DNA of 32,000 nt from Pseudanabaena sp. UBA1465 (GTDB taxonomy: Bacteria > Cyanobacteriota > Cyanobacteriia > Pseudanabaenales > Pseudanabaenaceae): NCBI GenBank assembly GCA_002325645.1, contig DCSN01000229.1:6143-38142 (forward strand), written 5' to 3'. Position 1 is the first letter of the stretch. Every line of letters begins with the position of its first letter. Under the pieces are notes generated by a model. That model had not been told where the DNA came from. It did not search any database and saw only the letters and a list, made by a program, of their open reading frames with translations. Shown here one piece after another: positions 2,368 through 21,368 of the stretch. Made by a program: the position numbers and the translations under genes.

Positions 2368-2368
2368 T

Positions 2369-2400
2369 AAAAAAGGCGGTGCTTAGCACCGCCTTTTTTA
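2369..2400. terminator. Bidirectional rho-independent terminator between convergent genes
   Basis: aaaaaaggcggtgc tta gcaccgcctttttt is a GC stem flanked by an A-run and a T-run. It sits between the stop at 2367 (+) and the stop at 2398 (-). Confidence 0.75.
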
Positions 2401-3525
2401 GGGGATTTCGCTGTTTGACATCGATTCTAAAAATCCGCGTAGCTCTGTTTCCTTGGGTTCAATGGTGTTAGGTTGATTGATCCCAAAAAGTCTTTCAGCA
2501 ATTTCTCCCTCTCTACCTAATGTTTTGATTTGCTGATTGTTATAACTAAGCCCCACTGACGAAGCATTGCCAGCACGAATCGAGATTTGGCGATCGCCTG
2601 ACCAAGTGAGCTTTTTCCCTTCATCAAGGACACCTTCAAACTCAGTCTTACCATCAACGATGATGCGTAACCAAGACTGCCCCTTCATCACAATGCCAAC
2701 ATTAACAGGCTTATTACCTGCAAACTCAAACTTACCGTCAGCACCATCGATCGCCGAGTTTTTTTGCGTAGTACTGCGTTGTAAATCCACATTACTTGTC
2801 CAAGATTTGAGGACATTATTAAAGCTAGAGTTTACTTCCCCAAACGCAGACTCAGACTGAGATTTGTTGAGTGAATTTGCCGAGGTTGTTAATCCTTCAG
2901 GGGCATTGGCTGTTGGTAATACCACTGAAGGATTAATAACTGAAGGATTAATAACTGAAGGATTATTGGTATTAGTTGCCATTGCCGATGGATCAACAAC
3001 TGTCTGCCGCAAAACCTCTAGCCCACCTATAGCAGGTACTAGGCTTTCAACCTTTGCGCTTGTGTTAGCCTTGGGCAAATTTACCTGAGCTGCTTTACTC
3101 AAGATGGTTTGGCTATCGTTGATTTTGTTGGCATCTGGGGCATTTAAAAATGTTGCTAACAGGCTGACAGCACCAGCAATCACACCAATATATAGTGCAT
3201 ATAAGTGTAGAGGACGTAGTTCCGCCGCAGGACTACCCGCCCATTTGGTTTGAGGCAGCACAGGGTTTAAAGGGAAATCTTCGGATAAGTCGCCAACACC
3301 TAGCGCGTCACCATACTTACGGATAAATCCTCGTACATATACAGGCTCAGGCAATGAGTCTATTTCGCCATCTTCGATCGCCCGCAGATAGCGTTCAGAA
3401 ATTAAGGTAGTTGCAGTTAAATGCGGAATCGATAGATCCTTATCTTGTCGAATTCGCTTAAATTGCGCTCCGATTTCCGCTAGTTTCTCTGCTTGCTTCG
3501 AGGTTGTAATGTTCACAATACTCAC
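2398..3525 (-). CDS. RodZ-like cytoskeleton/morphogenesis protein (N-terminal HTH, TM segment, C-terminal DUF4115-like domain)
   Basis: N-terminal XRE-type HTH (LSIPHLTATTLISERYLRAIEDGE), a hydrophobic segment (LYALYIGVIAGAVSLLATF), a low-complexity linker, and a C-terminal block SWLRIIVDGK..EGVL..G....W. Confidence 0.65.
   Translation of the reverse strand: MSIVNITTSKQAEKLAEIGAQFKRIRQDKDLSIPHLTATTLISERYLRAIEDGEIDSLPEPVYVRGFIRKYGDALGVGDLSEDFPLNPVLPQTKWAGSPAAELRPLHLYALYIGVIAGAVSLLATFLNAPDANKINDSQTILSKAAQVNLPKANTSAKVESLVPAIGGLEVLRQTVVDPSAMATNTNNPSVINPSVINPSVVLPTANAPEGLTTSANSLNKSQSESAFGEVNSSFNNVLKSWTSNVDLQRSTTQKNSAIDGADGKFEFAGNKPVNVGIVMKGQSWLRIIVDGKTEFEGVLDEGKKLTWSGDRQISIRAGNASSVGLSYNNQQIKTLGREGEIAERLFGINQPNTIEPKETELRGFLESMSNSEIP
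2924..2967. repeat. 15-nt tandem repeat (actgaaggattaata, about 2.9 copies) inside the RodZ-like gene
   Basis: Read directly from the sequence. It encodes PSVINPSVINPSVV in the low-complexity linker on the minus strand. Confidence 0.8.
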
Positions 3526-3720
3526 GACATGTATGAAGAGATTGGGGGGACTGGACTACAAAAAATGACTTTGAACCAGATTTCGATAGCCACAAATTAT
3601 ATAGAGCGTTTATATGGAGATTTGTTTCTACTTTGAGCAACTCACCGTAGCCTAATTACTCTAGCCTAGCTAACTATAACATTTTGTAAAGTGTTAATAG
3701 TAAATCAATAACTCATAACA

Positions 3721-3767
3721 GATAAATTTTTAAAAGGCTTGCTTTGCAAGCCTTTTAAAAATTTATC
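3721..3767 (-). terminator. Perfect 22-bp-stem hairpin downstream of the pseudouridine synthase gene
   Basis: gataaatttttaaaaggcttgc ttt gcaagccttttaaaaatttatc. Confidence 0.55.
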
Positions 3768-3813
3768 TGGATTTGTAAGAAGGCGCAAAATATCGTAATA
3801 TCCTTGACGATCG

Positions 3814-4530
3814 CTATAAGTTTTTAATTTCTTGTTCAGTTAGTAAGCGATAATCTCCGACTTTTAATGAGGTAACTGAAATAGAGGCGATTGCCCTTCG
3901 ATGCAATGCTAGGACAGGATGCCCTAATTGTTCAGCAACCTTCCTGATTTGACGGTTACGCCCCTCTGACAAAATAATTTGCAATCTGGTTTTGGGATGT
4001 TGGGAATGCTCAATTTGCTGGATTTGTACGGTGGCGGGTAAAGTCATTTTGCCTTCTAATAAAACTCCTTCTTGCCACTGTTTAAGGGTTTGCCGACTGG
4101 GAATATCCTTTACCCAAACCTCGTAGGTTTTTGCGACATGGTGGCGCGGGTGCATCAGATAGTTGGCAAATTCGCCATCATTGGTCAAAATTAACGCGCC
4201 ACTGCTGTTATAGTCCAATCTTCCTACGGGATAAACCTGTTTATATGGGGATGGCAATAGATCGAGAACTGTTTTTCTGCCTTGGGGATCATCACAGGTA
4301 CTCACTACACCCATGGGTTTGTTGATTAATAAATAGATAAATTCTGGAGCCTTGGTTTGTAATAATTTTCCATCAACTTCAATGCGATCGCGGTCAGGGT
4401 CAGCCTTAGTTCCTAATTCTCTAATTTGCTTCCCATTGATCCAAACTCGTCCTGACAAAATAATCTGTTCAGCTTCACGGCGTGAAGCAAGGCCATAGCG
4501 AGAGAGAATCTTTTGGAGGCGATCGAGCAT
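3814..4530 (-). CDS. Pseudouridine synthase, RsuA/RluB family (S4 domain + catalytic domain)
   Basis: MLDRLQKILSRYGLASRREAEQII..GRV.ING (S4 domain) and GRLDYNSSGALILTNDG (catalytic Asp motif). The ORF-track start at 4596 runs through a hairpin, so the ATG at 4528-4530 is preferred. Confidence 0.8.
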   Translation of the reverse strand: MLDRLQKILSRYGLASRREAEQIILSGRVWINGKQIRELGTKADPDRDRIEVDGKLLQTKAPEFIYLLINKPMGVVSTCDDPQGRKTVLDLLPSPYKQVYPVGRLDYNSSGALILTNDGEFANYLMHPRHHVAKTYEVWVKDIPSRQTLKQWQEGVLLEGKMTLPATVQIQQIEHSQHPKTRLQIILSEGRNRQIRKVAEQLGHPVLALHRRAIASISVTSLKVGDYRLLTEQEIKNL

Positions 4531-4793
4531 ACAGTCTGTTGAGGCTTCAAGTAGTATGAAGAAATTTTTGAAAGCGCGGCTCTGCGGCGCTTTCAAAAAT
4601 TTCTTTGGGTTTTAATGATGTCTTAAGTGAATGGTGGAAAGTACTTTCCACCATTCACAATCATAATTGCTTTGTACATATGCTTTGTGTAACAAGGGGC
4701 TTAAGCCCCTTGTTCTTTATATTTACACAATGCAAGTGATTATGCGCTTATTGCATATAGATATTGCCATTATTAAATAATAGTTAAAAATAT

Positions 4794-4988: not shown

Positions 4989-6548
4989 ATGGCAAACAAA
5001 ATTGAAGATCTGAAGATGGCCAAGGATGGGCTTGCGCTTAAAGCCGAAATTGATCGTTTCGCCGAAATTGGTTGGGAAGCGATCGATGACGACGACTTAC
5101 AATATCGGTTGAAATGGCTCGGTATCTTCTTTCGCAAAAGTACTCCTGGTCGTTTTATGGTCAGGATGCGGGTTCCCAACGGGCTAATCAATAACGATCA
5201 AATGCGCGTCCTCGCCTCGGTAGTTGAGAAATGTGGTGAGCATGGCGTTGCTGATATTACTACACGTCAAAATATCCAAATGCGCGGAATTTTGATCGAA
5301 GATGTGCCTGAGATGTTAGCGAAGTTCCGTTCTGTTGGACTTACCAGTGTCCAGTCAGCAATGGATAACATCCGTAATATTACGGGTTCGCCCGTGGCGG
5401 GGCTTGACGCAAATGAGCTTTACGACACCCGCGAACTAGCGATACAGGTTCAAAATTTGCTAACCAACAACGGTGAAGGCAATCCTGCTTTTACGAATTT
5501 GCCGCGCAAGTTTAATATTGCGATCGCAGGCTGTCGGGATAATTCCACCCATGCCGAAATCAATGATTTAGCCTTTGTGCCAGCCTTTAAAGAAGTATCT
5601 AAACAAACTTTTGGATTTAATGTACTTGTCGGTGGATTTTTCTCAGCGAAGCGAGTTGAAGCTGCAATCCCTTTGAATGTATGGGTTCCACCTGAAGATG
5701 TAGTTGCTCTATGTGAAGCCCTATTGATTGTCTATCGTGATCATGGATTACGCGAAAAGCGAGATAAATCCCGTTTAATGTTTTTAATCGACCAATGGGG
5801 AATTGAGAAATTCCGTGCCGAAGTTGAGAAACAACTCGGTAAAACCCTTGCCACTGCTGCTCTCAAGGACGAAATTGAATGGGAAAAGCGGGATCATATC
5901 GGCGTTCATCCCCAAAAGCAGGAAGGATTGAGCTATGTCGGTTTACAAATTCCTGTTGGTCGGATGTATGCCCCTGACATGTATGAGTTTGCCCGTCTTG
6001 CTGAGACTTACGGCAATGGTGATATGCGTCTCACCGTAGAGCAGAATCTCCTAATTACCAATGTCAGTGATCAGAAATTACCAGCGCTTCTGCAAGAATC
6101 GCTACTTCAGAAGTTTCCCGTCAATCCTGACAACCTCATGCGGGGATTGGTTTCCTGTACGGGTAATCAATTTTGTCCTGTGGCGATCGTGGAAACCAAA
6201 AATCGTTCTCTCGCTCTGACCAAACAACTCAGCGAAGATTATCACCTTCCCAAAGTAGTTCGTATTCATTGGAGTGGTTGCCCGAACTCTTGCGCTCAGC
6301 CACAGGTTGCCGATATTGGCTTCACAGGTTGCAAAGCGCGGAAAAACGGCAAAGTTGTCGATGGTGTTGACATATATATGGGAGGCACTGTTGGCAAAGA
6401 AGCCCATCTCGGTAAATGCGTGATGGAAAAAATCCCCTGCGAAGATTTGCGCGAAGTTGTCGGCAAGCTTTTAGTCGAACAATTTGGCGCAATTCCCAAG
6501 CAACAGGCGATCGCTGAACCTTCAGCCGAACTGGTCGCCGTTGGCTAA
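4989..6548 (+). CDS. nirA: Ferredoxin-nitrite reductase
   Basis: Sirohaem/4Fe-4S Cys cluster region (SCTGNQFCP...GCPNSCAQ) and NirA-like blocks (RLKWLGIFFR, TTRQNIQ.RG). Genomic context is upstream of nrtABDC-narB. The start is taken at the ATG at 4989 (MANKIEDLK), after the tandem repeat. Confidence 0.9.
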   Translation: MANKIEDLKMAKDGLALKAEIDRFAEIGWEAIDDDDLQYRLKWLGIFFRKSTPGRFMVRMRVPNGLINNDQMRVLASVVEKCGEHGVADITTRQNIQMRGILIEDVPEMLAKFRSVGLTSVQSAMDNIRNITGSPVAGLDANELYDTRELAIQVQNLLTNNGEGNPAFTNLPRKFNIAIAGCRDNSTHAEINDLAFVPAFKEVSKQTFGFNVLVGGFFSAKRVEAAIPLNVWVPPEDVVALCEALLIVYRDHGLREKRDKSRLMFLIDQWGIEKFRAEVEKQLGKTLATAALKDEIEWEKRDHIGVHPQKQEGLSYVGLQIPVGRMYAPDMYEFARLAETYGNGDMRLTVEQNLLITNVSDQKLPALLQESLLQKFPVNPDNLMRGLVSCTGNQFCPVAIVETKNRSLALTKQLSEDYHLPKVVRIHWSGCPNSCAQPQVADIGFTGCKARKNGKVVDGVDIYMGGTVGKEAHLGKCVMEKIPCEDLREVVGKLLVEQFGAIPKQQAIAEPSAELVAVG

Positions 6549-6599
6549 CAATCCTCAAAATTAAATTCTCAAACCTCAATCAGTTATTAAAGGAAATTC

Positions 6600-7931
6600 A
6601 TGAGTACATTCTCTCGTCGCAAATTTTTAACCACCGCAGGGCTTTCTACCGTTAGCGCGATCGCTCTCAACGCTTGTGGTGGCAGTGAAACTCCTACGAC
6701 TACAACCGCCGCAAGTCCCACCACGACTAAGGCTGCGGCTGCTCCCGTCAATGCTGCTGATGCCCCTGAAGTCACTAAAGCTAAATTGGGATTCATCGCT
6801 CTCACCGATGCATCTCCTCTAATTATTGCTTTGGAGAAAGGCTACTTCAAGAAATACGGCATGACCAATGTTGAAGTTCTCAAACAAGCATCATGGGGAA
6901 CCACCCGCGATAACATTGTCCTTGGCTCCGATGCAGGTGGTATCGATGGCGCTCACATTCTCACCCCCATGCCTTACCTAATTGCCGAAGGTAAGATTAC
7001 TAACGGCAACAAAGTGCCAATGTATATTTTGGCAAGACTGAATACCAATGGACAAGCGATTTCGATCGCTAATGATTTTAAAGATGCCAAGATTGCTCTC
7101 AAGAGTGATGCTTTAAAGGATACTTTCGCCAAAATCAAAGCGGGCGGTAAAGATCTTAAATGTGCTGTTACCTTCCCAGGAGGGACTCACGATCTCTGGA
7201 TGCGCTATTGGTTAGCAGCGAATGGCGTTGACCCTGACAAGGATGTATCAACGATCGTCGTACCACCGCCACAGATGGTTGCCAATATGAAGGCTGGCAA
7301 TATGGAAGCTTTCTGTGTAGGAGAACCTTGGAATGCTCGACTCATTGAGCAGAAATCTGGTTACACGGCTTTGATTACAGGCGAACTATGGAAGGATCAC
7401 CCTGAAAAAGCATTTTCACTCAGGGCTGATTGGGTAGACAAAAATCCTAGGGCGGCAATGGCTCTGCTCAAAGCCGTTTTGGAAGCACAGGTATGGTGCG
7501 AAGATCCCGCTAATAAGGAAGAAATGTGCAAGATTGTCGGCGCTGACAAGTGGTTTAAGGTTCCACCTGCCGAAATTTTGGGTAGACAGCAGGGCAAGGT
7601 CGATTACGGCGATGGGCGCACTTTGGACAGCACAGATTTGTCGATGAAGTTCTGGAAAGATAATGCTTCTTATCCCTTCAAGAGTCACGATCTTTGGTTC
7701 CTTACCGAAGATATCCGTTGGGGATATTTTGATGCAACTCTGGATACCAAGGCACTGGTTGATAAGGTTAATCGTGAAGATCTATGGAAAGAAGCTGCCA
7801 AGGCGATCGGCAAGGAAGCCGATATTCCTAAGAGTACTTCTCGTGGTATTGAAACCTTCTTTGATGGCGTGAAGTTTGATCCTGAGAATCCTAAAGCTTA
7901 TTTGGATGGACTCAAGATCAAGAAGGTTTAG
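6600..7931 (+). CDS. nrtA: Nitrate/nitrite ABC transporter substrate-binding lipoprotein
   Basis: Twin-Arg-like signal with a lipobox (RRKFLTTAGLSTVSAIALNACGG), then the NrtA/CmpA pattern (KLGFIALTDASPLI, VGEPWN). Context also supports the call. Confidence 0.9.
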   Translation: MSTFSRRKFLTTAGLSTVSAIALNACGGSETPTTTTAASPTTTKAAAAPVNAADAPEVTKAKLGFIALTDASPLIIALEKGYFKKYGMTNVEVLKQASWGTTRDNIVLGSDAGGIDGAHILTPMPYLIAEGKITNGNKVPMYILARLNTNGQAISIANDFKDAKIALKSDALKDTFAKIKAGGKDLKCAVTFPGGTHDLWMRYWLAANGVDPDKDVSTIVVPPPQMVANMKAGNMEAFCVGEPWNARLIEQKSGYTALITGELWKDHPEKAFSLRADWVDKNPRAAMALLKAVLEAQVWCEDPANKEEMCKIVGADKWFKVPPAEILGRQQGKVDYGDGRTLDSTDLSMKFWKDNASYPFKSHDLWFLTEDIRWGYFDATLDTKALVDKVNREDLWKEAAKAIGKEADIPKSTSRGIETFFDGVKFDPENPKAYLDGLKIKKV

Positions 7932-11940: not shown

Positions 11941-14109
11941 ATGTCTGAAACTATCCCTTCTATCCATGCCACACCTCACACTGTTAAAACCCTCTGCCCC
12001 TATTGTGGTGTCGGCTGTGGTTTGGAAATTGTGGAAACCACGAAAGAGCCAACCGTAAAATTTCCCGATCGCTTCAAAGTTCGAGGCGATCGCCGTCATC
12101 CATCTAGTCAAGGTATGGTCTGCGTCAAAGGCGCAACCGTTGCCGAATCCATTCAAAAGGATCGGCTATTACATCCAATGATGCGCGATCGCCTCGATCA
12201 AGAATTTCGCCAAGTCAGTTGGGAGCAAGCGTTTAGCGCGATCGTAAATCGAATTCAGAAAGTGCTGGCTACCACAGGGGCGGACGCTCTCTGTATGTTT
12301 GGTTCGGGGCAGTTTCAGACTGAGGACTATTACATAGCCCAGAAATTATTTAAAGGGTGTTTGGGAACCAATAATTTTGACGCAAATTCCCGTCTCTGTA
12401 TGTCTTCCGCCGTTTCAGGCTATGTCAAAAGCTTGGGAGCCGATGGTCCTCCCTGCTGCTATGAAGATTTTGAGTTAACTGATTGTCTATTTGCGATCGG
12501 TACAAATACTGCCGAATGTCATCCGATTATTTTCAATCGCTTTCGTAAATACCATAAAAAAAATCCCCATGTAAAGCTAATTGTCGTTGATCCACGCCGC
12601 ACTCAAACCGCCGAAGTTGCTGACCTCCATTTAGCGATTCAACCAGCAACAGATATTGATTTGTTAAATGGGATCGCTCACCTATTATTAAAATGGAATA
12701 AATGCGATCGCGCCTTCATCGAGAACCACACCACAGGTTTTGGTGAATTTCAAGAAATCACCGAACTTTATACTCCCGAATTTGTATCGCGGCGCTGTGG
12801 CATTAGCATCGAAGATTTGGAACTAGCTGCTAAATATTGGGCAGAATCGCAGCGAGTTCTCTCGATCTGGTCAATGGGAGTCAATCAATCCATTCAAGGC
12901 ACGGCAAAAGTGCAATGTATCATTAATCTGCATTTACTCACGGCTCAAATTGGGAAAGAAGGCACAGGTCCCTTTTCGCTCACAGGTCAGCCCAACGCAA
13001 TGGGAGGCAGAGAAGCGGGAGGTTTAGCCCAGTTATTACCTGGCTATCGCTTTGTCACTAATCCCGATCATCGTGCCGAATTAGAACAATTCTGGAATTT
13101 ACCTGCGGGACAAATTTCACCTCAAGTCGGTCGCACCGCATGGGATATCGTGCGCGGTTTAGAAGCCGATCAAGTTGATTTGCTCTGGATTGCGGCCACT
13201 AATCCCGCTGTTAGTTTTCCCGATTTAGTGCGAACCAAAGCCGCGTTAAGGCGATCGCCTTTCACCGTTTATCAAGATGCCTATTACCCCACCGAAACCT
13301 CTGAATTTGCCCATATCCTCCTGCCAGCAACCCAATGGAGCGAGAAGACTGGCACAATGACCAATTCTGAGCGTTGCGTCACTCTCTGTCAAGCCTTTCA
13401 GCCCCCTCTCGGTGAATCCCTTGCCGATTGGAAAATCTTTGCCGAAGTTGGTCGGAGATTAGGTTTTGCCGATAAGTTCCCATTCCAAAACTCCGCCGAG
13501 GTCTATGCCGAATTTGTGCAGATTACCCGCGATCGCCCTTGTGATATGACAGGTATTAGCCATGCCAAACTTGCGGAACTAGGCGCAATCCAATGGCAAG
13601 CTTCCGATCAACATCCTGAGCAAGATCAATTGCATAATAAGCGTCTCTACACCGATCTGCAATTCCATACAGGCGATCGCAAAGCTAGATTTGGAGCCTA
13701 TCATTCTCAAGGTGTATTTGAAGTTCCCGATGACCAGTATCCCTTCATTCTCACCAATGGCAGGGTATACGGACATTGGCATACGCAAACTCGCACAGGT
13801 CGCATTGATAAGATTCGGCAAATGTATCCGCATCCCTTTCTCGAAATCCATCCCAAAGATGCAGCTAGATTTTCCATTAACAATGGAGATTTAGTGGAAG
13901 TGAAATCACGACGCGGTTCTTCTAAGTTTCCTGCATTGGTGACGGAGGCGATCGCACGCGGTGTGTTATTTGTACCAATGCATTGGGGAACGCTCTGGGC
14001 GGACAATGCGGAAGCCAATGCTCTCACCCATCCCGAAGCTTGTCCCGACTCGAAGCAACCAGAGTTAAAGGCTTGTGCAGTGGCGATATCCTTAGTTAAT
14101 TTGCCTTAG
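11941..14109 (+). CDS. narB: Assimilatory ferredoxin-nitrate reductase (molybdopterin oxidoreductase)
   Basis: N-terminal 4Fe-4S motif CPYCGVGCG...C, followed by MopB-family blocks. It lies at the end of the nir-nrt cluster. Confidence 0.9.
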
Positions 14110-14121
14110 TAGATTTGTAGT

Positions 14122-14170
14122 AAGAAAAAACTTAAAAGTGTTGCGAAGCAACACTTTTAAGTTTTTTCTT
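14122..14170 (+). terminator. Terminator hairpin after narB
   Basis: aagaaaaaacttaaaagtgttgc gaa gcaacacttttaagttttttctt is a perfect 23-bp stem ending in a T-run. Confidence 0.7.
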
Positions 14171-14283: not shown

Positions 14284-14311
14284 GTAGGGGCAATTCATGA
14301 ATTGCCCCTAC
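14284..14311. repeat. Perfect 28-nt palindrome gtaggggcaattcatgaattgcccctac at the left edge of the NLR module
   Basis: Read directly from the sequence. It lies immediately left of the vestigial effector 3' end. Confidence 0.9.
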
Positions 14312-14322
14312 GCTGGAATACT

Positions 14323-14382
14323 AATAATGTAAAAGTGACGGGTGATATCAATTGAGATAATCTGACTTAGGAGGTTTAGGCG
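14323..14382 (+). pseudogene. Vestigial 3' end of a second Bell-like effector gene copy (encodes ...NNVKVTGDIN stop) plus the conserved Shine-Dalgarno spacer
   Basis: About three quarters of positions, by eye, match 15292-15351, the 3' end of the 164-aa gene plus its spacer. The match includes aatgtNaaNgtNacgggtgatat and the aggagg-N-ttagg-N-g ATG junction. Confidence 0.7.
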
Positions 14383-14808
14383 ATGGAAGAATTGTTAGAA
14401 CTTAAGGGATTTTTACTTGATGGCAATATCCATGAGGCTTTGCTGTTGGTTGAGGAAATGACGGAAATGAGCAAAGACGACAAGCTGAATAAAATCTCCA
14501 GTTTTGCAAAGCTCCTCTTGTTGCATTTAATCAAGCGCCAAGCCGAAGGACATACAACGCGATCGTGGGATGCTTCTATTGAGAATGCTGTCTATGAAAT
14601 TCAAAAAACTAATCGTCGTCGTAAATCTGGTGGTAACTACTTATCGATTGAAGAATTAAGGGAAGCCATAAGTGATGCCTATCGAGTGGCTCTGTCTAGT
14701 GCGGCGGCGGCGGCTTTCGGTGGTTGTTATACAGTGTCACAGTTAGCTGATATGGTCGATCGCAATACCATAATTCAAGAGGCGATCTCGTTAGTTTCTA
14801 GTAGCTGA
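14383..14808 (+). CDS. Small helical protein, DUF29-like (paralogue A1 of the NLR-operon accessory protein)
   Basis: 141 aa with an AGGAGG Shine-Dalgarno. It is about 65 percent identical by eye to the ORF at 15352-15783. The pattern LLVEEMTEMSKDDK...LLLHLIKRQAEGHTTRSWDASI resembles the DUF29 pattern (EEIE.L.....hhhHLLKW......RSW..TI). Confidence 0.75.
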   Translation: MEELLELKGFLLDGNIHEALLLVEEMTEMSKDDKLNKISSFAKLLLLHLIKRQAEGHTTRSWDASIENAVYEIQKTNRRRKSGGNYLSIEELREAISDAYRVALSSAAAAAFGGCYTVSQLADMVDRNTIIQEAISLVSSS

Positions 14809-14853: not shown

Positions 14854-15348
14854 ATGGAGCCTGTTTCTTTGCTTATGGGTTTGTTGGTGATTGTGGGTAC
14901 AGGCTCATTAACTAAGGTTGGTGAAAATATTACCGATGAAACAGTGAAACTGGCTCGATCGCTCTGGTCAATTCTCAGTCGCAAGGCTCCAGATTCGCAG
15001 ACGGCTAGGTTAATTGAGGCAGGGAAAGAGATTGATTATCAGCAAGCGGTAATTGATGTGGAGGCGATCGCTGATGATCCTGATGTGATTAAGTTGTTGG
15101 ATGAAGTGCGATCGCTTTTATCTAGCAATCAAGAATTAGCGACGAAGGTTGAAGAGTTGGTGGTACAGGCTAAAATTGGGTCAAAAAGTGTACAAGTGAT
15201 GGCTAATGATATTGAGGGCGTAAACCTTCGCGCAAAATCGATGAAGCAAACAGCGCCATCGGTTAGCGGTTCGGTCGAGCAAACGATGTTAAAAAATGTC
15301 AAGGTAACGGGTGATATTGATTTGGGTGATTTAACTCAGGAGGCTTAG
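14854..15348 (+). CDS. Bell-like putative membrane-targeting effector with a C-terminal NLR-matching (amyloid-signalling-like) motif
   Basis: 164 aa. N-terminal hydrophobic helix MEPVSLLMGLLVIVGTGSL, a helical body, and the C-terminal tail QTMLKNVKVTGDIDLGDLTQ, which aligns with residues 9-28 of the downstream NB-ARC protein. Confidence 0.65.
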   Translation: MEPVSLLMGLLVIVGTGSLTKVGENITDETVKLARSLWSILSRKAPDSQTARLIEAGKEIDYQQAVIDVEAIADDPDVIKLLDEVRSLLSSNQELATKVEELVVQAKIGSKSVQVMANDIEGVNLRAKSMKQTAPSVSGSVEQTMLKNVKVTGDIDLGDLTQEA

Positions 15349-15351
15349 GTG

Positions 15352-15783
15352 ATGGAAGAGTTATTAGAACTGAAGGGATTTTTGCTCAGTGGCAATATCT
15401 CTGATGCTTTGTTGTTGGTGGAGGAGATGACAGAAATGAGCAAGGATGACAAAATCAACAAGATTTCTAGCTACGCGAAGATTGTCATCTCTCATTTGAT
15501 TAAACGGGCTGCGGAAAAACGCACAACTAGATCTTGGGATCTGTCAATCAAACATGCGGTTAACGAAATTCAGAAAACAAATCGGCGGCGTAAGGCTGGC
15601 GGTAAATATATTGCTGATTCTGAATTGTTCGAGACATTTAATGAGGCATATCCTTTTGCTTTAGATTTGGCTGCTGTTGAGGCGTTTGGTGGGCATTATG
15701 AATCGGCTGAGTTGGGTGCGATGGTTGATCGCGATCGCGTAATTCAAGAGGCGATCGCTTTAGTTTTGGGTGAGGCAACATGA
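15352..15783 (+). CDS. Small helical protein, DUF29-like (paralogue A2), translationally coupled to the NLR gene
   Basis: The ATG lies 4 nt after the stop of the effector gene (TAG GTG ATG) and behind an AGGAGG Shine-Dalgarno. The stop overlaps the next start (ATGA at 15780-15783). It starts MEELLELKGFLL, like A1. Confidence 0.75.
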   Translation: MEELLELKGFLLSGNISDALLLVEEMTEMSKDDKINKISSYAKIVISHLIKRAAEKRTTRSWDLSIKHAVNEIQKTNRRRKAGGKYIADSELFETFNEAYPFALDLAAVEAFGGHYESAELGAMVDRDRVIQEAIALVLGEAT

Positions 15784-18269
15784 CGACAGATCCGAAAAAT
15801 CAACAGTCGGCTTTACAAGGTAATGATGTGGGGCGCGACCTCACAATTGGTAACATCACTCAGACCATTAACTATAACCAAATTGTAGAGGAGGCAAAAC
15901 GGGCAGGAAGCTTGCTGAATCTTCCGCAGACTAATGTGACTTTTTTTGCGGGACGGGATGAGGATCTGGAAAAGGTGCATGAACTTTTGCAGAAAAATCA
16001 GAAGGTGGCGGTGTCTGCTTTTGTGAAAGGCATGGGTGGTGTCGGTAAGTCGGAACTTGCCCTGCAATATGCGTTACGGCATCTGTTGACGGACTATGGC
16101 GGCGGGATCTGTTGGTTACGGGGAAATGAGGGGACTTTGCCGACCCAGTTACAGGATTTTGTACAGGTGCAGCTTGGGGAAACGATGCCCGATGGGTTGA
16201 ATAGTGGCGAAAAGTTGGCAGGGCATTGCTGGCGGCGGCTATCGGAACGGGTGGCGGGGCAAATGTTGGTGGTGTTGGATGATGTGAAAGATTATGGGAA
16301 TGTGGAGCCATTTTTGCCAACCCTAGATGGCAAGTTTCGGGTATTGGTGACAACGCGGTTGGGATTGGGGAATGCGATGCAGCAATACAGGTTAGATGTT
16401 TTGGTGTTGGCGGCGGCAGTGGATTTGCTAAAGTCGTTTTTGCCTGAAGCCGATCCGCGTCGGGAGAATGAAGAAGCAATCAAAAATCTCTGTACATGGT
16501 TGGGGCGGTTGCCTTTAGCGATCGAGTTGGTGGGGCGGTATTTGGCTTTGCCGAATCAGTTAGATACTGGTATTTCTGAGATCTTGCAACGTTTGCAAGG
16601 GGAATGTATGGTGCAGCTTTCAGAAATTACTGATGAGGAAAGGAAGTTATTACCCAAAAATCTAAATGTGGCGGCTTCATTTTTCTTGAGTTGGCAAGAG
16701 TTGTCACCTTTGGCGCAACGTTTGGCTTGTTTGTTGGGTTTATTTGCTTTAGCGCCGATTCCTTGGACTTTAATCCAGTCTGTGATGCTAGATGAGACAA
16801 AGCAAAAACAATCTTTTTGGCAAGGTTTGCAAGGGCTGTTTCAAAAAAAAGCGGTGGCGCTTACGGAACGAGATTTGCAAGGGGCAAGGGGAGAGTTGCT
16901 AAATCTGCATTTGTTGGAACGGACGCAACAGGGAGTATATGAATTGCATCAGCTTTTGCGGGAATATTTTCAGTTTCAATTGCAACAACATCCCGAATGG
17001 CAAGTTTTGCGGCAACAGGTGGCGGTATCACTGCTGAATATTTCTAAGGGAATTGAAGAAATAATCACTATTGATCAAGTTAAAGAAGTTGCACCCGCGA
17101 TTCCCCATCTAGAAATACTCGGACGGGAAATGTTGGCTGTTATTCCCAATCCTGAAGATAATTTAGTTTGGGCATTTTTGGGAGTTGCTAGGTTTTACAA
17201 AGGTCAAGGGCTATATGCTTCAGCAGTAGATCCATATCAAACCTGCCTCAAAGTCTCCGAATCACACTTAGGAGCAGACCATCCCTCTGTCGCCACCAGT
17301 CTCAATAATCTCGCAGAACTTTACCGCGTGCAAGGAAAATACAGCGAAGCCGAACCTCTCTATCTGCGATCGCTCGAAATCAGGGAACGTCAACTAGGGG
17401 CAGACCATCCCGATGTCGCCCAAAGTCTCAACAATCTCGCAGGACTTTACAATTCGCAAGGGAAGTACAGCGAAGCCGAACCTCTCTATCGGCGATCGCT
17501 CGAAATCAGGGAACGCCAACTAGGAGCAGACCATCCCGATGTCGCCACCAGTCTCAACAATCTCGCGTTACTTTACGAATCGCAAGGGAAGTACAGCGAA
17601 GCCGAACCTCTCTATCGGCGATCGCTCGAAATCGATAAACGCATCTATGGAGAAGACCATCCCGAAATCGCAACAGATCTCAACAATTTCGCAGGTCTTT
17701 ACCGATCGCAAGGGAAGTACAGCGAAGCCGAACCTCTCTATGTGCGATCGCTCGAAATCGATAAACGCATCTATGGAGAAGATCATCCCGAAATCGCAAC
17801 AGATCTCAACAATCTCGCATTACTTTACAAATCGCAAGGGAAGTATAGTGATGCCGAACCTCTTTATCTGCGATCGCTCGAAATCAGGGAACGCCAACTA
17901 GGGGCAGACCACCCAGATGTCGCAATAGATATCAACAATCTCGCATTACTTTACGATAATCAAGGGAAGTACAGCGAAGCCGAACCTCTCTATCTGCGAT
18001 CGCTCGAAATCAGGGAACGCCAACTAGGGGCAGACCACCCAGATGTCGCCCAAAGTCTACTCAACTTAGCCGCTCTCTATCACAATACCCAACGTCATCC
18101 CGAAGCCCTGCAATCCATCCAACGCGCCATCCAAATTTACGAACAAAAACTTGGCACAGAGCATCCCAACACTCAAAATGCACTTGGTTGGCTTCAGACA
18201 ATCCGTGCAGCCAATAAACCTAGTTTTCCTATAGAATTCTTGCTAAACACAAAACCTCCTACCCCATGA
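15780..18269 (+). CDS. STAND NTPase: short N-terminal signalling motif + NB-ARC + TPR array (bacterial NLR-like protein)
   Basis: Walker A GMGGVGKS (16029-16052), Walker B LVVLDDV (16263-16283), RVLVTTR and GRLPLAIELVG (16503-16523). These are followed by about eight 42-aa TPR units of the kinesin-light-chain type (TPR_10/12-like). Confidence 0.9.
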   Translation: MTTDPKNQQSALQGNDVGRDLTIGNITQTINYNQIVEEAKRAGSLLNLPQTNVTFFAGRDEDLEKVHELLQKNQKVAVSAFVKGMGGVGKSELALQYALRHLLTDYGGGICWLRGNEGTLPTQLQDFVQVQLGETMPDGLNSGEKLAGHCWRRLSERVAGQMLVVLDDVKDYGNVEPFLPTLDGKFRVLVTTRLGLGNAMQQYRLDVLVLAAAVDLLKSFLPEADPRRENEEAIKNLCTWLGRLPLAIELVGRYLALPNQLDTGISEILQRLQGECMVQLSEITDEERKLLPKNLNVAASFFLSWQELSPLAQRLACLLGLFALAPIPWTLIQSVMLDETKQKQSFWQGLQGLFQKKAVALTERDLQGARGELLNLHLLERTQQGVYELHQLLREYFQFQLQQHPEWQVLRQQVAVSLLNISKGIEEIITIDQVKEVAPAIPHLEILGREMLAVIPNPEDNLVWAFLGVARFYKGQGLYASAVDPYQTCLKVSESHLGADHPSVATSLNNLAELYRVQGKYSEAEPLYLRSLEIRERQLGADHPDVAQSLNNLAGLYNSQGKYSEAEPLYRRSLEIRERQLGADHPDVATSLNNLALLYESQGKYSEAEPLYRRSLEIDKRIYGEDHPEIATDLNNFAGLYRSQGKYSEAEPLYVRSLEIDKRIYGEDHPEIATDLNNLALLYKSQGKYSDAEPLYLRSLEIRERQLGADHPDVAIDINNLALLYDNQGKYSEAEPLYLRSLEIRERQLGADHPDVAQSLLNLAALYHNTQRHPEALQSIQRAIQIYEQKLGTEHPNTQNALGWLQTIRAANKPSFPIEFLLNTKPPTP
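17205..18215 (+). repeat. Tandem 126-bp (42-aa TPR) repeats: six near-identical units (17331-18086) flanked by degenerate units
   Basis: The unit start caagg(g/a)aa(g/a)ta recurs at 17331, 17457, 17583, 17709, 17835 and 17961, an exact 126-nt period. Every unit contains a HIP1 site (GCGATCGC, encoding RSLE). Confidence 0.95.
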
Positions 18270-18294: not shown

Positions 18295-18627
18295 TTAAAC
18301 TTCTTCATCTAAAAAAGGTAAAAGATCCTCTAAGTCTCTCATCCCATGCAAAACTCTTAGAACTTCGACTCGATCCTCTAGAACCTTGTAAAAAATCAAA
18401 TAATCCTTAAAATTCTTAATTCGCCATTGACGGATCGTTCCCATATCAGACAAAACTAATGGCACAACCCTACCCATATTGGGAGTTATCCCTAGCTGCG
18501 CGAAAGCATACTCAGCAAATTCTAGAAATCTCTCAGCCGCATCTCGATTTCCCATCGCTAAAATATAATTTGCCTGTCGCCTGATATCTTGGGTAGCGTG
18601 ATCGCGAACAATTATCGGAAAAGTCAT
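18295..18627 (-). CDS. parE: ParE-family toxin (RelE/ParE superfamily)
   Basis: MTFPIIVRDHATQDIRRQANYI...AAERFLEFAEYAFAQL...IRQWRIKNFKDYLIFYKVLEDRVEVLRVLHGMRD is the typical ParE pattern. The start is taken at the ATG at 18625-18627, 5 nt after the parD stop. Confidence 0.8.
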   Translation of the reverse strand: MTFPIIVRDHATQDIRRQANYILAMGNRDAAERFLEFAEYAFAQLGITPNMGRVVPLVLSDMGTIRQWRIKNFKDYLIFYKVLEDRVEVLRVLHGMRDLEDLLPFLDEEV

Positions 18628-18632
18628 ACTTG

Positions 18633-18887
18633 CTACTGCTCTGTTCCAAGTACCGACAATCGGAGATCTTGCCAATAAGCTGAAGTTACCAGTTCAGGCT
18701 CTGAGTTCAAACCCTCTTGTAACAAACTCACTAGTTTTGTCTGAGCCTCCCTCCTTTGCCGATCTTGATTCAGCAAAGCCAGAAAATAATCCGCCACAGT
18801 ATTATAAGTTCCAGACTGAATCTGTCCTTGAACATAGGACTCAAGTTCTTTTGGTATTGGAAAACTTACATTCATAAACCTTTTCAA
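18633..18887 (-). CDS. parD: ParD-family antitoxin
   Basis: MNVSFPIPKELESYVQGQIQSGTYNTVADYFLALLNQDRQR is the ParD4/COG3609-like pattern. It sits directly upstream of parE. Confidence 0.75.
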   Translation of the reverse strand: MKRFMNVSFPIPKELESYVQGQIQSGTYNTVADYFLALLNQDRQRREAQTKLVSLLQEGLNSEPELVTSAYWQDLRLSVLGTEQ

Positions 18888-18923
18888 GATGAATAAAGTA
18901 CTGCCAATAATTTTAGCATTAGT

Positions 18924-19004
18924 CGAGAACTAGGCGCAGACCATCCGACAACTCAAAATGCACTTGGTTGGCTTCAGGTGAGCAAGGAAAAAGGAAAAGG
19001 GTAA
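18924..19004 (+). pseudogene. Relic of an NLR/TPR gene 3' end (RELGADHPTTQNALGWLQVSKEKGKG stop)
   Basis: Positions 18951-18977 are identical (27 nt) to 18171-18197 in the intact NLR gene. No upstream coding body is present. Confidence 0.75.
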
Positions 19005-19076
19005 AAGGAAAAATGTGGATTTTTTGAGTTTTGTTGGTTGATGTTATCTTAGGACATAGGATTAGGCTAAAAGTAT

Positions 19077-19328
19077 ATGTATCAAGTCACACTAAATTAC
19101 GCCAAAGCAAACCTTGATGAACTATGCGATCGGGCAGGTCAAGAACCAGAAGGAGTAGCGATCGTTCGTGAAAATCGCAGTTATATTCTGATTACTCAAG
19201 AAGAATGGGAATCTCTAATTGAAACTGCGGAATTAATGCAATTACCCAACCTGCTCACCCAAGTTGCATCTGCTCGCCAAGAATATCAAGCAGGAGAAGC
19301 ACTCTCTATGGAGCAAGTCTTTGGATGA
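19077..19328 (+). CDS. Phd/YefM-family antitoxin
   Basis: MYQVTLNYAKANLDELCDRA....VAIVRENRSYILITQEEWESLIETAELM is the typical Phd/YefM fold pattern. It overlaps the next gene by ATGA. Confidence 0.8.
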   Translation: MYQVTLNYAKANLDELCDRAGQEPEGVAIVRENRSYILITQEEWESLIETAELMQLPNLLTQVASARQEYQAGEALSMEQVFG

Positions 19329-19582
19329 AAATCTACAGAGTCCTCTTTTCTAAACAAGCTCAAAAAGATATCAGCGAACTCACATCTAAACAAAAAGCAA
19401 AACTCCAAGAAATTTTGCTTAACACACTCGCCCCCAATCCTTACCTCGGAAAAGCGCTAAAAGGTGACCTGAACGGTTTGCGTTCCTATCGTCTTAACCT
19501 CAAAGATCGCATTGTTTACGAGATTTATGAAGAAGACCAATCAATATTGATCATTAGAGCAAAAACTCACTATGGAGAATAA
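19325..19582 (+). CDS. relE: RelE/ParE-family toxin
   Basis: KIYRVLFSKQAQKDISEL...GKALKGDLNGLRSYRLNLKDRIVYEIYEEDQSILIIRAKTHY is the RelE/StbE-like pattern. Confidence 0.8.
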   Translation: MKIYRVLFSKQAQKDISELTSKQKAKLQEILLNTLAPNPYLGKALKGDLNGLRSYRLNLKDRIVYEIYEEDQSILIIRAKTHYGE

Positions 19583-19799
19583 CTACAGCATTTCTATCCA
19601 ATGGTCAGAAGAAGACCGTAAATTTATCGCTCACTTACCCGAATTTGGTCCCTACGCCCACACTCACGGCGACACCTACGCTCATGCCCTAGAAAATGCC
19701 CTAGAAGTTTTGGAATTACTAATTGAGGATTACACCGCTCGTCACAAACCCTTACCAACACCACGCATAATTAAAAAATCCGACTTCATTGCAGCTTGA
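19572..19799 (+). CDS. hicB: HicB-family antitoxin-like protein (no intact hicA partner)
   Basis: YSISIQWSEEDRKFIAHLPEFGPYAHTHGDTYAHALENALEVLELLIEDYTARHKPLPTP is the HicB/UPF0150 pattern. It overlaps the relE 3' end by 11 nt. Confidence 0.75.
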   Translation: MENNYSISIQWSEEDRKFIAHLPEFGPYAHTHGDTYAHALENALEVLELLIEDYTARHKPLPTPRIIKKSDFIAA

Positions 19800-19819
19800 T
19801 AAGAGTAGACTATCTATCT

Positions 19820-20002
19820 GTTACCACCAGTCTCAACGGTCTCGCATCACTTTACGAATCGCAAGGGAAGTACAGCGAAGCCGAACCTCTTTATGTGTGA
19901 GCTATCCAAATCCTTGAAAAAGCCCTTGGTTCCGAGCATCCCAATACCGTCACAGCCCGCCAAAATTATGAGATTATGTGCGAAACCATGAAGGAGACAT
20001 AA
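19820..20002 (+). pseudogene. TPR gene fragment with an in-frame stop (VTTSLNGLASLYESQGKYSEAEPLYV-stop-AIQILEKALGSEHPNTVTARQNYEIMCETMKET)
   Basis: It is nearly identical to the TPR unit of the NLR gene (tacgaatcgcaagggaagtacagcgaagccgaacctct). A TGA replaces the Arg codon expected in LYxRSLEI. The body 5' of it is missing. Confidence 0.8.
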
Positions 20003-20107
20003 ATGGGAAAATACGAAAAATTTAGACAAAAACTGCTTGATGGCGGCAGCGACAACAGTAATGCAATTAAGAAAAAGAAAAAATCGCAAATACTGAATCT
20101 ACCATAA
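20003..20107 (+). pseudogene. Possible truncated hicA-like toxin remnant (34 codons)
   Basis: MGKYEKFRQKLLDGGSDNSNAI resembles the N-terminus of one HicA subfamily as I remember it. The rest (KKKKKSQILNLP) is unrelated and short. Confidence 0.3.
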
Positions 20108-20120
20108 CCAGAACCTAACC

Positions 20121-20381
20121 ATGAATACATCCACTAAAACCATCAAAGTTTACGATGAAATTGTTGACTTTATTGCATCTGGCACAACGCCCCAGAGCGT
20201 AATCGACTTCCATCTTTCTGAAGCCGCACAAGAGCGCTTAGAAGATTTAATATACAACGCTAAAAACAATGCGCTTACAAAAGAAGACAAGCGTGAACTA
20301 GACCATTTCCTGACAATAGAACATATATTGACCCTAGCCAAAGCTAAAGCCCATAGATACATCAACACTGAGGCTAAATGA
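20121..20381 (+). CDS. Small helical protein of unknown function, coupled to the downstream HNH nuclease gene
   Basis: 86 aa. Its stop lies 1 nt before the next ATG. The C-terminal half EDKRELDHFLTIEHILTLAKAKAHRY is amphipathic and helical. Confidence 0.6.
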   Translation: MNTSTKTIKVYDEIVDFIASGTTPQSVIDFHLSEAAQERLEDLIYNAKNNALTKEDKRELDHFLTIEHILTLAKAKAHRYINTEAK

Positions 20382-20382
20382 A

Positions 20383-20823
20383 ATGCCTCGAACCTATATT
20401 AGCGTTCAGCTAAGGCAATTAGTCATCGAACGCGCTGACAGCATTTGTGAATACTGTTTGGTTTCAGCATCAGATAGATCCTCTAGTTGCCAAGTTGACC
20501 ACATCATTAGCGTGAAACATGGCGGCGATTCGACAGCCGAAAATCTTTGCTATGCTTGCCTATTCTGTAACCTGCAAAAAGGCACAGATCTAGGCTCGAT
20601 TAATTGGCGAAGCGGAGAACTTGTCAGATTCTTTAACCCTCGTAGAGATTTATGGAGAGAACATTTTCAACTAGATGGAGCGATAATTCGATCAACTACA
20701 GATATCGGCGAAGTCACAGCAAGAATCCTTGATTTTAATGATGCAGATCGTATTTTAGAGCGACAAATACTCATCGAAAATAACAGATATCTATCAACAG
20801 CAGCCAAAAAGAAAATAGGCTAA
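20383..20823 (+). CDS. HNH endonuclease
   Basis: CEYC...QVDHIISVKHGGDSTAENLCYACLFCNLQKG contains CxxC, the HNH His-Asn core and a second CxxC zinc ligand pair. Confidence 0.8.
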   Translation: MPRTYISVQLRQLVIERADSICEYCLVSASDRSSSCQVDHIISVKHGGDSTAENLCYACLFCNLQKGTDLGSINWRSGELVRFFNPRRDLWREHFQLDGAIIRSTTDIGEVTARILDFNDADRILERQILIENNRYLSTAAKKKIG

Positions 20824-20844
20824 ATAAGTTAAACTAAGGCGATC

Positions 20845-20866
20845 GGTTGGCTTCAGTAGATCCGTG
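20845..20866 (+). repeat. Third short relic of the NLR gene 3' end (ggttggcttcag ta gatccgtg)
   Basis: It matches 18186-18207 of the intact gene (GWLQ.IR region) with 3 mismatches. Confidence 0.55.
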
Positions 20867-20907
20867 ATGTCCTGTAAAATAAGAAGATAAAGCGATCGCA
20901 AAAAACA

Positions 20908-21117
20908 ATGACTACCAAAGAAAAGCTAATTCAAGAAGTCGAAAACATTTCTGAATCATTATTAGCAGAAACCCTTGACTTTGTATTGTTTCTCAAATCT
21001 CGCTATGCAGAAGAGGAAATAACTACAGAAGAAAAAGAAAACATTCTCGCTTCTCAAACAGCCTATCTTTCAGGTGATTACCTAACCCTCGACCAATACG
21101 AGGCAAATCAAGCATGA
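20908..21117 (+). CDS. Antitoxin-like small protein (DUF2281-like)
   Basis: KEKLIQEVENISESLLAETLDFVLFLKSRY is the DUF2281-type N-terminus. It overlaps the downstream relE-type gene by ATGA. Confidence 0.65.
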   Translation: MTTKEKLIQEVENISESLLAETLDFVLFLKSRYAEEEITTEEKENILASQTAYLSGDYLTLDQYEANQA

Positions 21118-21368
21118 GCTATCGCATCGTTATCCCTAAACCCGCCCAAAAGCAACTAGATAACATCACAAAAATTGAACGCGATCGCTTGATTCTAACA
21201 TTGCGCTCTCTAGCCAACGATCCGCGTCCGAACGGAGTTAAAAAGCTCAAAGGCTACGACAATACCTATCGTGTCAGAGTTGGAGACTATCGCATTATCT
21301 ACGAAATTAAAGACAGAGAGCTAATTGTATTATTGTTAAGTGTCAGTCATCGTAAAGATGTCTACTAA
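21114..21368 (+). CDS. relE: RelE/ParE-family toxin
   Basis: YRIVIPKPAQKQLDNI......L..LANDPRPNGVKKLKGYDNTYRVRVGDYRIIYEIKDRELIVLLLSVSHRKDVY is the canonical RelE pattern. Confidence 0.85.
   Translation: MSYRIVIPKPAQKQLDNITKIERDRLILTLRSLANDPRPNGVKKLKGYDNTYRVRVGDYRIIYEIKDRELIVLLLSVSHRKDVY

Follow-up and report, generated by a model that had tools for sequence, protein, structure and literature searches.

Amyloid templating from a receptor to its effector has been demonstrated for the fungal pair HET-S/NWD2 and for Bab/Agp of Escherichia coli (BASS11; bioRxiv 10.1101/2024.11.07.622273), and prion and fibril formation have been published for the bacterial motif families BASS1 and BASS3. BASS motifs have beta propensity and a composition in which Q, N, G, V and I are overrepresented and K, P and L are scarce; Bell domains are helical and about 100 amino acids (aa) long, have a hydrophobic helix at the N-terminus and are acidic at position 2 or 3 (Dyrka et al. 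2020). BASS4 motifs frequently occur as repeats on the Bell side, in a HET-s-like manner, and singly on the NLR side (2021 BASS paper). According to the 2024 Bab/Agp paper the function of bacterial Bell/NLR pairs remains to be elucidated. Here we analyse such a pair, the effector gene B and the NLR-like receptor gene C, in a stretch of 32,000 nucleotides (nt) from Pseudanabaena sp. UBA1465 (GCA_002325645.1, contig DCSN01000229.1, positions 6,143 to 38,142), which we call the window. We consider it likely that this locus of a Pseudanabaena-type filamentous cyanobacterium serves amyloid signalling as a Bell/NLR module and belongs to the published BASS4 family. The original prediction, made from the letters of the window, had noticed a motif of about 20 residues shared by the C-terminus of B and the N-terminus of C and had proposed it as an amyloid signalling sequence. 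This was a correct by-eye rediscovery of a known amyloid-signalling pair and adds one more BASS4 locus, from Pseudanabaena. The features of the pair are the following.

14854..15348, + strand: gene B, open reading frame of 164 aa, Bell-type effector with a C-terminal BASS4 tail
14854..15177, + strand: helical N-terminal domain of B, residues 1-108 (AlphaFold2 model with the deeper alignment)
15190..15249, + strand: R1, degenerate first BASS4 pseudo-repeat of B, residues 113-132, VQVMANDIEGVNLRAKSMKQ (partial profile match)
15268..15345, + strand: R2, BASS4 motif at the C-terminus of B, residues 139-164 (BASS4 profile; encloses 15280-15339)
15349..15783, + strand: DUF29 gene between effector and NLR (Pfam PF01724, E 2.4e-7)
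15780..18269, + strand: gene C, NLR-like receptor of 829 aa with NB-ARC and TPR domains by Pfam
15795..15869, + strand: BASS4 motif at the N-terminus of C, residues 6-30 (BASS4 profile; encloses 15804-15863)
15957..16613, + strand: NB-ARC domain of C, residues 60-278 (Pfam PF00931, E 7.5e-13; Walker A GMGGVGKS)
17145..18200, + strand: TPR sensor repeats of C, seven 126-nt units (direct repeat family D1; TPR_12/TPR_10 matches)

B, DUF29 and C are collinear on the + strand with abutting or overlapping start and stop codons. From the stop of B to the start of C there are 431 nt on the same strand, within the limit of 5 kb used for BASS pairs, whose genes are mostly collinear neighbours. B and C had been taken for neighbouring genes. 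This needs correction, because the 144-aa DUF29 gene occupies the gap between them. It starts right after the stop codon of B (144 aa from GTG 15349, or 143 aa from ATG 15352), overlaps the start of C by 4 nt (ATGA), and its ribosome-binding site lies within the last codons of B (CAG GAG GCT TAG); the gene is translationally coupled. C has the architecture expected of an NLR, that is NB-ARC or NACHT together with TPR or WD repeats. The Walker A motif is at residue 84, and TPR_12 matches eight stretches of the protein with an E value of 2.9e-130 (Pfam). The seven 126-nt TPR units are 63-87% identical to one another at the nucleotide level, an internally conserved type of array that can diversify via unequal recombination.

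The shared motif lies where it is found in BASS pairs, that is as about 20-25 aa at the C-terminus of the effector and at the N-terminus of the NLR. Residues 143-162 of B (nt 15280-15339) read QTMLKNVKVTGDIDLGDLTQ and residues 9-28 of C (nt 15804-15863) read QSALQGNDVGRDLTIGNITQ; in their context the C-terminus of B is ...SVSGSVEQTMLKNVKVTGDIDLGDLTQEA and the N-terminus of C is MTTDPKNQQSALQGNDVGRDLTIGNITQTINYNQ.... All coordinates, residue numbers and motif sequences of the original prediction proved exact, as did its count of seven identical positions out of 20 in the ungapped alignment (BLOSUM62 sum 34). With composition-preserving shuffles in a fixed register, seven or more identities arise with P = 0.0012 and a BLOSUM sum of at least 34 with P = 2e-5; these values are generous because the register was held fixed. 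A Smith-Waterman alignment of the last 30 aa of B with the first 40 aa of C gives a score of 36 (shuffles 19 +/- 4, P ~0.003), so that the similarity exceeds the shuffled controls which had been asked for, and it also exceeds the profile background described below. When the tail of B is scanned along all 829 aa of C the best placement is at residues 8-28, and the N-terminus of C scanned along B is best placed at residues 142-162. Taken alone, the pairwise similarity is only moderately significant, suggestive rather than compelling. The family-level evidence for the shared motif is strong.

We built a BASS4 profile from published motifs of cyanobacteria, 42 of the Bell side and 8 of the NLR side, with the two closest homologues left out. 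The motif datasets are those of PMC8086366, whose README labels C03 as BASS3, C06 as BASS4 and C07 as BASS5. The BASS4 pattern is approximately Q-h-h-x-x-h-x-h-x-G-[DN]-h-x-h-G-[DN]-h-x-Q. Against 553 six-frame segments of the window the profile selects the tail of B (43.5 bits, E 5e-13; R2 at the domain level 41 bits, iE 3e-12) and the N-terminus of C (17.6 bits, E 7e-5), and weakly a vestigial Bell fragment upstream (E 0.1). No other of these segments matches below E = 4. With a profile made from the NLR side only, the N-terminus of C is found at E 1e-6 and the tail of B at E 5e-4. Among 5556 segments from all fetched loci (347 kaa), E 0.01 is passed only by Bell tails, NLR N-termini and one Bell remnant. 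The comparison with the published BASS families thus assigns the motif to BASS4.

Individual published entries are close to both partners. The protein A0A2S6CW54_9CYAN is listed twice in the BASS4 Bell-side set, as QAVKAGTIVQVMATDIEATNLKAKSMQQKATLHPEFVE and QQKATLHPEFVEQTMLKNVKVTGDIDLGDLSQEG, and therefore has two repeats, arranged as ...VQVMATDIEATNLKAKSMQQ...VEQTMLKNVKVTGDIDLGDLSQEG. Of its entries, QQKATLHPEFVEQTMLKNVKVTGDIDLGDLSQEG is the tail of B with two substitutions. Published NLR-side examples of BASS4 are ILQSILQNVQVGGNLTTGNITQTII, PEEILQSILQNVQVGGNLTTGNITQTII and DFQVVQRILENVWAGRDITIGDIHQIYQ, and the latter two closely resemble QQSALQGNDVGRDLTIGNITQTINY of C. Moreover, the BASS3 and BASS5 Bell-side sets contain the tails of close paralogues of B as exact entries (C03_s083, C07_s040), and the NLR N-terminus of locus L018 is the published entry OYQ63523.1; thus the family of B is part of the published Bell set. 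By sequence, the window pair belongs to the already described BASS4 Bell/NLR type (Dyrka et al. 2020), and the system is not new.

The original prediction had missed that B contains the motif once more, in degenerate form, further upstream (R1, residues 113-132). The window copy of R1 matches the BASS4 profile only in part (iE ~1), because one residue is missing (DIEG-VNL versus EIELTGDL). R1 aligns to the first repeat of published BASS4 proteins, and the equivalent segment is listed for A0A2S6CW54. In the related loci L040, L042 and L043 the equivalent first repeat is a significant BASS4 match, and R1 is invariant among the orthologues of B. In composition, the motif of C has 12 of 21 residues from the set Q, N, G, V and I and two from K, P and L, and R2 of B has 8 of 21 and five, respectively.

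For B we retrieved 188 homologues; every one with a named organism is from Pseudanabaena. The exact B protein occurs on six contigs, and variants with 97-99% identity occur on others. Common to the homologues is a conserved stretch of about 105 aa at the N-terminus (MEPVSLLVGLLVIVGTGSLTKVGENITDET...AAKVE), past which they split into at least five classes of unrelated C-terminal tails (BASS3, BASS4, BASS5 and others). A profile of the B family reaches proteins with tails of the BASS3, 4, 5, 7 and 9 types, and the paralogues P0094 and P0067/P0117 are 77-86% identical to B over the N-domain and carry tails which are exact published Bell-side entries. B begins M-E-P-VSLLMGLLVIVG, with a hydrophobic helix after M-E-P. 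This start, the helical model and the paralogue tails in the published Bell-side sets all mark B as a Bell domain protein. In the AlphaFold2 (AF2) model made with the deeper alignment (A3) the overall confidence score pLDDT is 69. Residues 3-108 form five or six helices (3-15, 28-44, 49-55, 62-71, 76-91 and 93-108; pLDDT 65-89), and the tail has low confidence with short strands in R1 and R2. A model from a shallow genus-level alignment was discarded (pLDDT 49). Pfam has no Bell model for direct comparison, and B matches no Pfam family and no PADLOC family. In PADLOC-DB 2.0 neither B nor DUF29 has a match, and C matches a generic TPR model only.

Among 12 orthologous BASS4a Bell genes, BASS4a being the tail class of B, the tail is nearly invariant while the N-domains have diverged. 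The ratio of nonsynonymous to synonymous substitution rates (dN/dS) is 0.23 for the N-domain (dS 0.78), 0.17 for the linker plus R1 (dS 0.50) and 0.057 for the R2 tail (dS 0.22). Within B, constraint is strongest in the tail, supposedly an unstructured part, and this tail is under strong purifying selection. The lower dS in R2 may stem from recombination of tail cassettes or from the DUF29 ribosome-binding site in the last codons. On the NLR side the motif is kept in L005, L006 and L007 and in P0129. Both motifs are thus conserved in orthologous pairs, as the original prediction had demanded.

We then compared tails and receptors at loci that contain relatives of B, 21 from genomes and 18 from metagenomes, plus a few found by exact protein look-up. 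In 22 of 23 paralogous loci the class of the Bell tail equals the class of the N-terminal motif of the downstream NB-ARC/TPR gene. Permutation of the classes, which ignores shared ancestry, gives a mean of 14.2 matches and a maximum of 21 in 200000 trials; 22 was never reached. The count pools BASS4a and class 2 tails; as class 2 is lumped with BASS4, the permutation test is more conservative. BASS4a tails pair with NLR starts of the form ...QQSALQG..VG.[DN]LTI...ITQTINY (window, L005, L006, L007) and class 2 tails (QTGFDNVKIKGKATIKLNQQIN) with QTGISGSTFGDNAQIEIKQEI or NKQTGLDNVNIGGDAEINISQEI. BASS3 tails pair with MSNPE[IV]NI.Q.G..NTQNNTFN and BASS5 tails with ...NK[LIV]ADK[IV]G[IV]....GS.VNI. 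Class 2 cannot be counted as true BASS4, since it misses E 0.01 with the BASS4 profile, and is BASS4-like only. A search for homologues of the N-terminal 140 aa of C yielded only fragments and served to show swapping of N-terminal cassettes: NLRs with nearly identical NB-ARC starts bear different N-terminal cassettes. Since tail classes and NLR cassettes both vary on like scaffolds, both partners evolve by cassette swapping. Of the covariation that had been proposed as a check, the joint switching of classes is thus observed, whereas covariation within BASS4a is not measurable because the Bell tail is almost invariant.

Several loci of the collection depart from the simple pair. In the single mismatched locus, L030, a BASS5-tailed Bell gene (467-883) is followed about 1 kb later by a BASS3-type NLR gene (1973-4564), which suggests that a partner was lost or rearranged. 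Two different motifs follow one another at the N-terminus of some NB-ARC/TPR proteins, a BASS4-like NKQT[AG]LENV..GD..INISQEI and then a BASS5 motif NK[LIV]ADK[IV]G.... (L001 7429, L010 6959, L013 8193, L018 6844, L019 2718, L032 5829; P0123, P0126). Such a dual-motif receptor might address two effectors. In L003 (6915-7247) and L041 (4900-5211) there are truncated NLR genes of 103-110 aa which keep a BASS4-like motif and have lost most of NB-ARC; these are either pseudogenes or free-standing motif-only peptides. The gap between Bell and NLR in sister loci holds gene pairs which resemble, by sequence only, nucleotidyltransferase/HepT, HicA/HicB and RelE/ParE (L009, L014, L021 at 6480-7190; L012, L013, L016 at 3424-3899; L018, L019 at 2310-2776). 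This space between the genes looks like a preferred site for small genes of a selfish or accessory kind.

We suggest that signalling at the locus could take place as follows. C, the NB-ARC/TPR protein, would act as the cytoplasmic sensor, and binding of a trigger by its TPR repeats would make it oligomerise via NB-ARC. The oligomer would cluster the N-terminal motifs (residues ~6-30) and in this way nucleate a cross-beta fold. This fold could template the matching tail of B with its pseudo-repeats R1 (113-132) and R2 (139-164). Conversion of the tail would free the helical N-domain of B, whose hydrophobic first helix could then attack the membrane, and the cell would be killed or arrested. The outcome would be a regulated cell-death or abortive-infection response. 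The analogy with HET-S/NWD2, BASS1, BASS3 and Bab/Agp (BASS11) underlies the proposed amyloid formation, the templating and the membrane attack, and likewise the view of the trigger. The arrangement of effector and NLR for amyloid signalling, which the original prediction had proposed, is supported by the BASS4 profile, by conservation among orthologues and by the co-switching of classes; the amyloid state itself is presumed.

Not all observations favour such a module. The BASS families which have been tested by experiment are BASS1, BASS3 and BASS11, and in an incomplete coverage of the literature we found no test of BASS4. Of the published collinear pairs 57% are at most 10 bp apart; here a DUF29 gene stands between B and C. 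R1 has a one-residue deletion and matches the profile only in part, and R2 is fairly charged (three D, two K, one E). The window pair is among the weakest cognate matches, with 36 compared with 60-83 for BASS3/BASS5 pairs, and for the tail of B the first motif of the dual-motif NLRs at other loci gives slightly higher scores (41-45) than its own NLR does. The co-switching statistic takes no account of shared ancestry. A Foldseek search of the AF2 model of B against the PDB gave a best E of 1.6 and no link to the HeLo or Bab folds, and a profile search with B among PDB sequences reached no better than E 0.19, to coiled coils.

Some of these points would suit a motif that is merely a cognate docking tag, acting by beta-strand addition or in a small heteromeric beta-sandwich, with no self-propagating polymer. 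BASS4 lies outside the tested families, the motif is rich in charged residues, the AF2 tail strands are short and of low confidence, the pairwise similarity is modest, and class co-switching shows specific pairing, not amyloid. Yet an effector with two repeats and an NLR with a single one make up the layout of HET-S/NWD2, and the conserved G-[DN] turns with alternating hydrophobics fit beta-arch stacking. Furthermore, sister tails on the same Bell scaffold include the RHIM-like BASS3, which forms prions and fibrils in experiments, and all BASS families tested so far formed amyloid. We therefore regard docking without a polymer as rather improbable, though it is the alternative to which we give most weight.

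The similarity could also stem from past duplication and recombination of tail cassettes, at a locus rich in pseudogene pieces and in a pair which no longer signals. Such a decaying relic would agree with the vestigial Bell tail 1 kb upstream, with Bell pseudogenes and truncated NLRs in the related loci L003, L041, L046 and L047, with the weak match of the window pair and with the deletion in R1. But B and C are full-length open reading frames with the Walker A motif and the TPR array intact, the dN/dS of the tail is that low across 12 orthologues, and the exact B protein recurs on six contigs, with near-identical variants elsewhere. Given the intact reading frames and the strong purifying selection, decay is unlikely, clearly more so than docking. 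Finally, two low-complexity termini rich in G, N and Q may resemble each other by chance; there are only seven identities in 20, and the local-alignment P of ~0.003 would fail in a genome-wide pair search. Against this, a profile from independently published motifs selects exactly both termini and the remnant, both motifs are kept in orthologous pairs, and classes switch together. A chance resemblance is scarcely credible, and the specificity of the profile (window and 347 kaa) together with class co-switching rules it out. A BASS4 amyloid-signalling module remains the reading that we favour.

The vestigial Bell tail noted in the original prediction is linked to a second DUF29 gene.

14323..14382, + strand: remnant of the 3' end of a BASS4-type Bell gene, the last 18 codons with in-frame stops (alignment to 15293-15350)
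14383..14808, + strand: DUF29 gene, upstream copy, 141 aa (Pfam PF01724, E 1.5e-7)

The vestigial copy is real, 14323-14355 encoding NNVKVTGDIN and then a stop; it had been taken to end there, but the homology continues past the stop to 14380. The remnant 14323-14380 aligns ungapped to 15293-15350 with 44 of 58 nt identical, which covers the last 18 Bell codons and the stop; the changes include TTG>TGA and CAG>TAG. It contains the AGGAGG ribosome-binding site of the upstream DUF29 gene. As a direct repeat (D2), 14323-14622 is 73% identical to 15292-15591, and the whole of 14323-14808 is a 69% identical duplicate of 15293-15783. The two DUF29 copies have 68% nt identity. A perfect palindrome of 28 nt (GTAGGGGCAATTCATGAATTGCCCCTAC, 14284-14311) abuts the remnant. 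It has no second copy in the window and none in any fetched locus, and by this palindrome search in the window and the fetched loci no mobile element could be linked to the truncation of the remnant.

That vestigial tail and DUF29 form a recurring cassette had been overlooked. Similar Bell remnants, ranging from 11 to more than 28 codons, precede DUF29 in L001, L004, L013 (5349-5525), L014, L019, L025, L037, L046 and L047. At least eight loci have an intact DUF29 gene after a decayed Bell remnant only, with remnants of differing length. In each of the 14 BASS4a loci of the Pseudanabaena type for which sufficient sequence is available, DUF29 stands directly after the Bell gene. The same holds for BASS4-tailed Bell genes whose N-domains are highly divergent, in L040, in L041 (with a truncated BASS4 NLR) and in L044 (two copies). 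The three-gene layout recurs even with Bell domains of ~37% alignment identity to B or unlike B (L041, L045). Conversely, an intact Bell gene with a ...NVKV[TS]GDIDLGDL.QE tail (...GDIDLGDLTQEA) and without DUF29 was seen in 0 of 17 cases. In 16 loci a DUF29 gene also lies upstream of the Bell gene, within roughly 60 bp. The BASS4 pairs of L042 and L043 have no DUF29 gene; thus DUF29 is not obligatory for BASS4 in general. Four DUF29 paralogues were sampled irrespective of Bell: one is within another Bell-like/DUF29/NLR triple (L045), one follows a Bell pseudogene (L046), one stands after an 11-codon remnant and before a P-loop ATPase (L047), and one is alone (L049). Against the PDB, DUF29 has no relative (best E 0.6).

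As to DUF29 placement in general, the gene directly follows every BASS4a-type Bell gene; DUF29 was recorded in the window and in L001-L008, L012, L022-L024, L028, L040, L041, L044 and L045. Its ribosome-binding site is within the final Bell codons, its stop often overlaps the NLR start across loci, and the copy number is 0, 1 or 2 in other BASS4 loci.

It is possible, if doubtful, that DUF29 is not a passenger but a functional third component, an antidote or brake on the Bell effector or on nucleation of the motif. An intact Bell gene is never seen without DUF29 while DUF29 often stands with a dead Bell gene, an asymmetry expected of toxin and antidote. The asymmetry could equally come from operon structure and shared ancestry. 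DUF29 after a decayed Bell gene also resembles orphan antidotes which outlive their toxins.

On both sides of the module the window contains other genes. A molybdopterin oxidoreductase gene lies directly upstream (11941-14109), probably a nitrate reductase, and just past its stop there is a perfect 23-nt inverted repeat (14122-14170) which looks like a terminator. Immediately downstream of C, at 18295-21368, genes of the toxin-antitoxin type are clustered; they comprise three ParE-family toxins, a Phd/YefM antitoxin, DUF2281 and an HNH endonuclease. Scans for promoters and terminators inside the operon gave nothing informative.

Beyond the literature, the only lead is the linkage to DUF29, which is possibly new; the dual-motif NLRs of the sister loci are a smaller one. 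If the linkage is functional, DUF29 would be a regulatory third partner beyond the published two-gene model. Pseudanabaena offers a natural panel, in which a single Bell scaffold occurs with five or more tails that can be exchanged, and every tail has a matching NLR of its own; this panel is well suited to the study of templating specificity.

Compared with the published BASS4 pairs (Dyrka et al. 2020, bioRxiv 10.1101/2020.01.06.895854), the window pair agrees in most respects. Those pairs are found in filamentous cyanobacteria and actinobacteria, and the genus is among those with matches. They combine a Bell-type helical effector with a C-terminal motif and an NB-ARC/TPR partner with an N-terminal motif, encoded by collinear genes within 5 kb, both motifs fit the BASS4 profile, and the Bell side is often repeated, for which B has the degenerate R1. 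The window differs by the intervening DUF29 gene, which neither BASS paper mentions, by abutting or overlapping codons, by the one-residue deletion in R1 and by a cognate match weaker than in most pairs. The BASS3 (RHIM-like) and BASS5 pairs on the Pseudanabaena Bell scaffold share the N-domain (64-86% identity), the NB-ARC/TPR partner and the genus. They carry another tail cassette and, by sequence resemblance, toxin-antitoxin-like pairs in place of DUF29, and some BASS5-type NLRs have two N-terminal motifs, unlike C.

HET-S/NWD2 of Podospora anserina (HRAM) is like the window pair in that effector and NLR genes are adjacent there, the effector has an N-terminal hydrophobic helix, two pseudo-repeats at the C-terminus of the effector (r1, r2) face one at the N-terminus of the NLR (r0), and templating is the proposed route. 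It is fungal, with HeLo and a NACHT/WD receptor rather than Bell and NB-ARC/TPR, and the motifs have no sequence similarity. The beta-solenoid structure of HET-s is solved, whereas none is solved for BASS4. Bab/Agp (BASS11), an antiphage abortive-infection system of E. coli, likewise has a small Bell-related effector whose C-terminal amyloid motif is that of the N-terminus of the adjacent sensor. It differs in the motif family, in the shorter effector (109 aa) and in its location in a prophage defence island. Its role in phage defence has been shown, and Bab/Agp serves as a demonstrated example of the mechanism that we suggest for the window pair.

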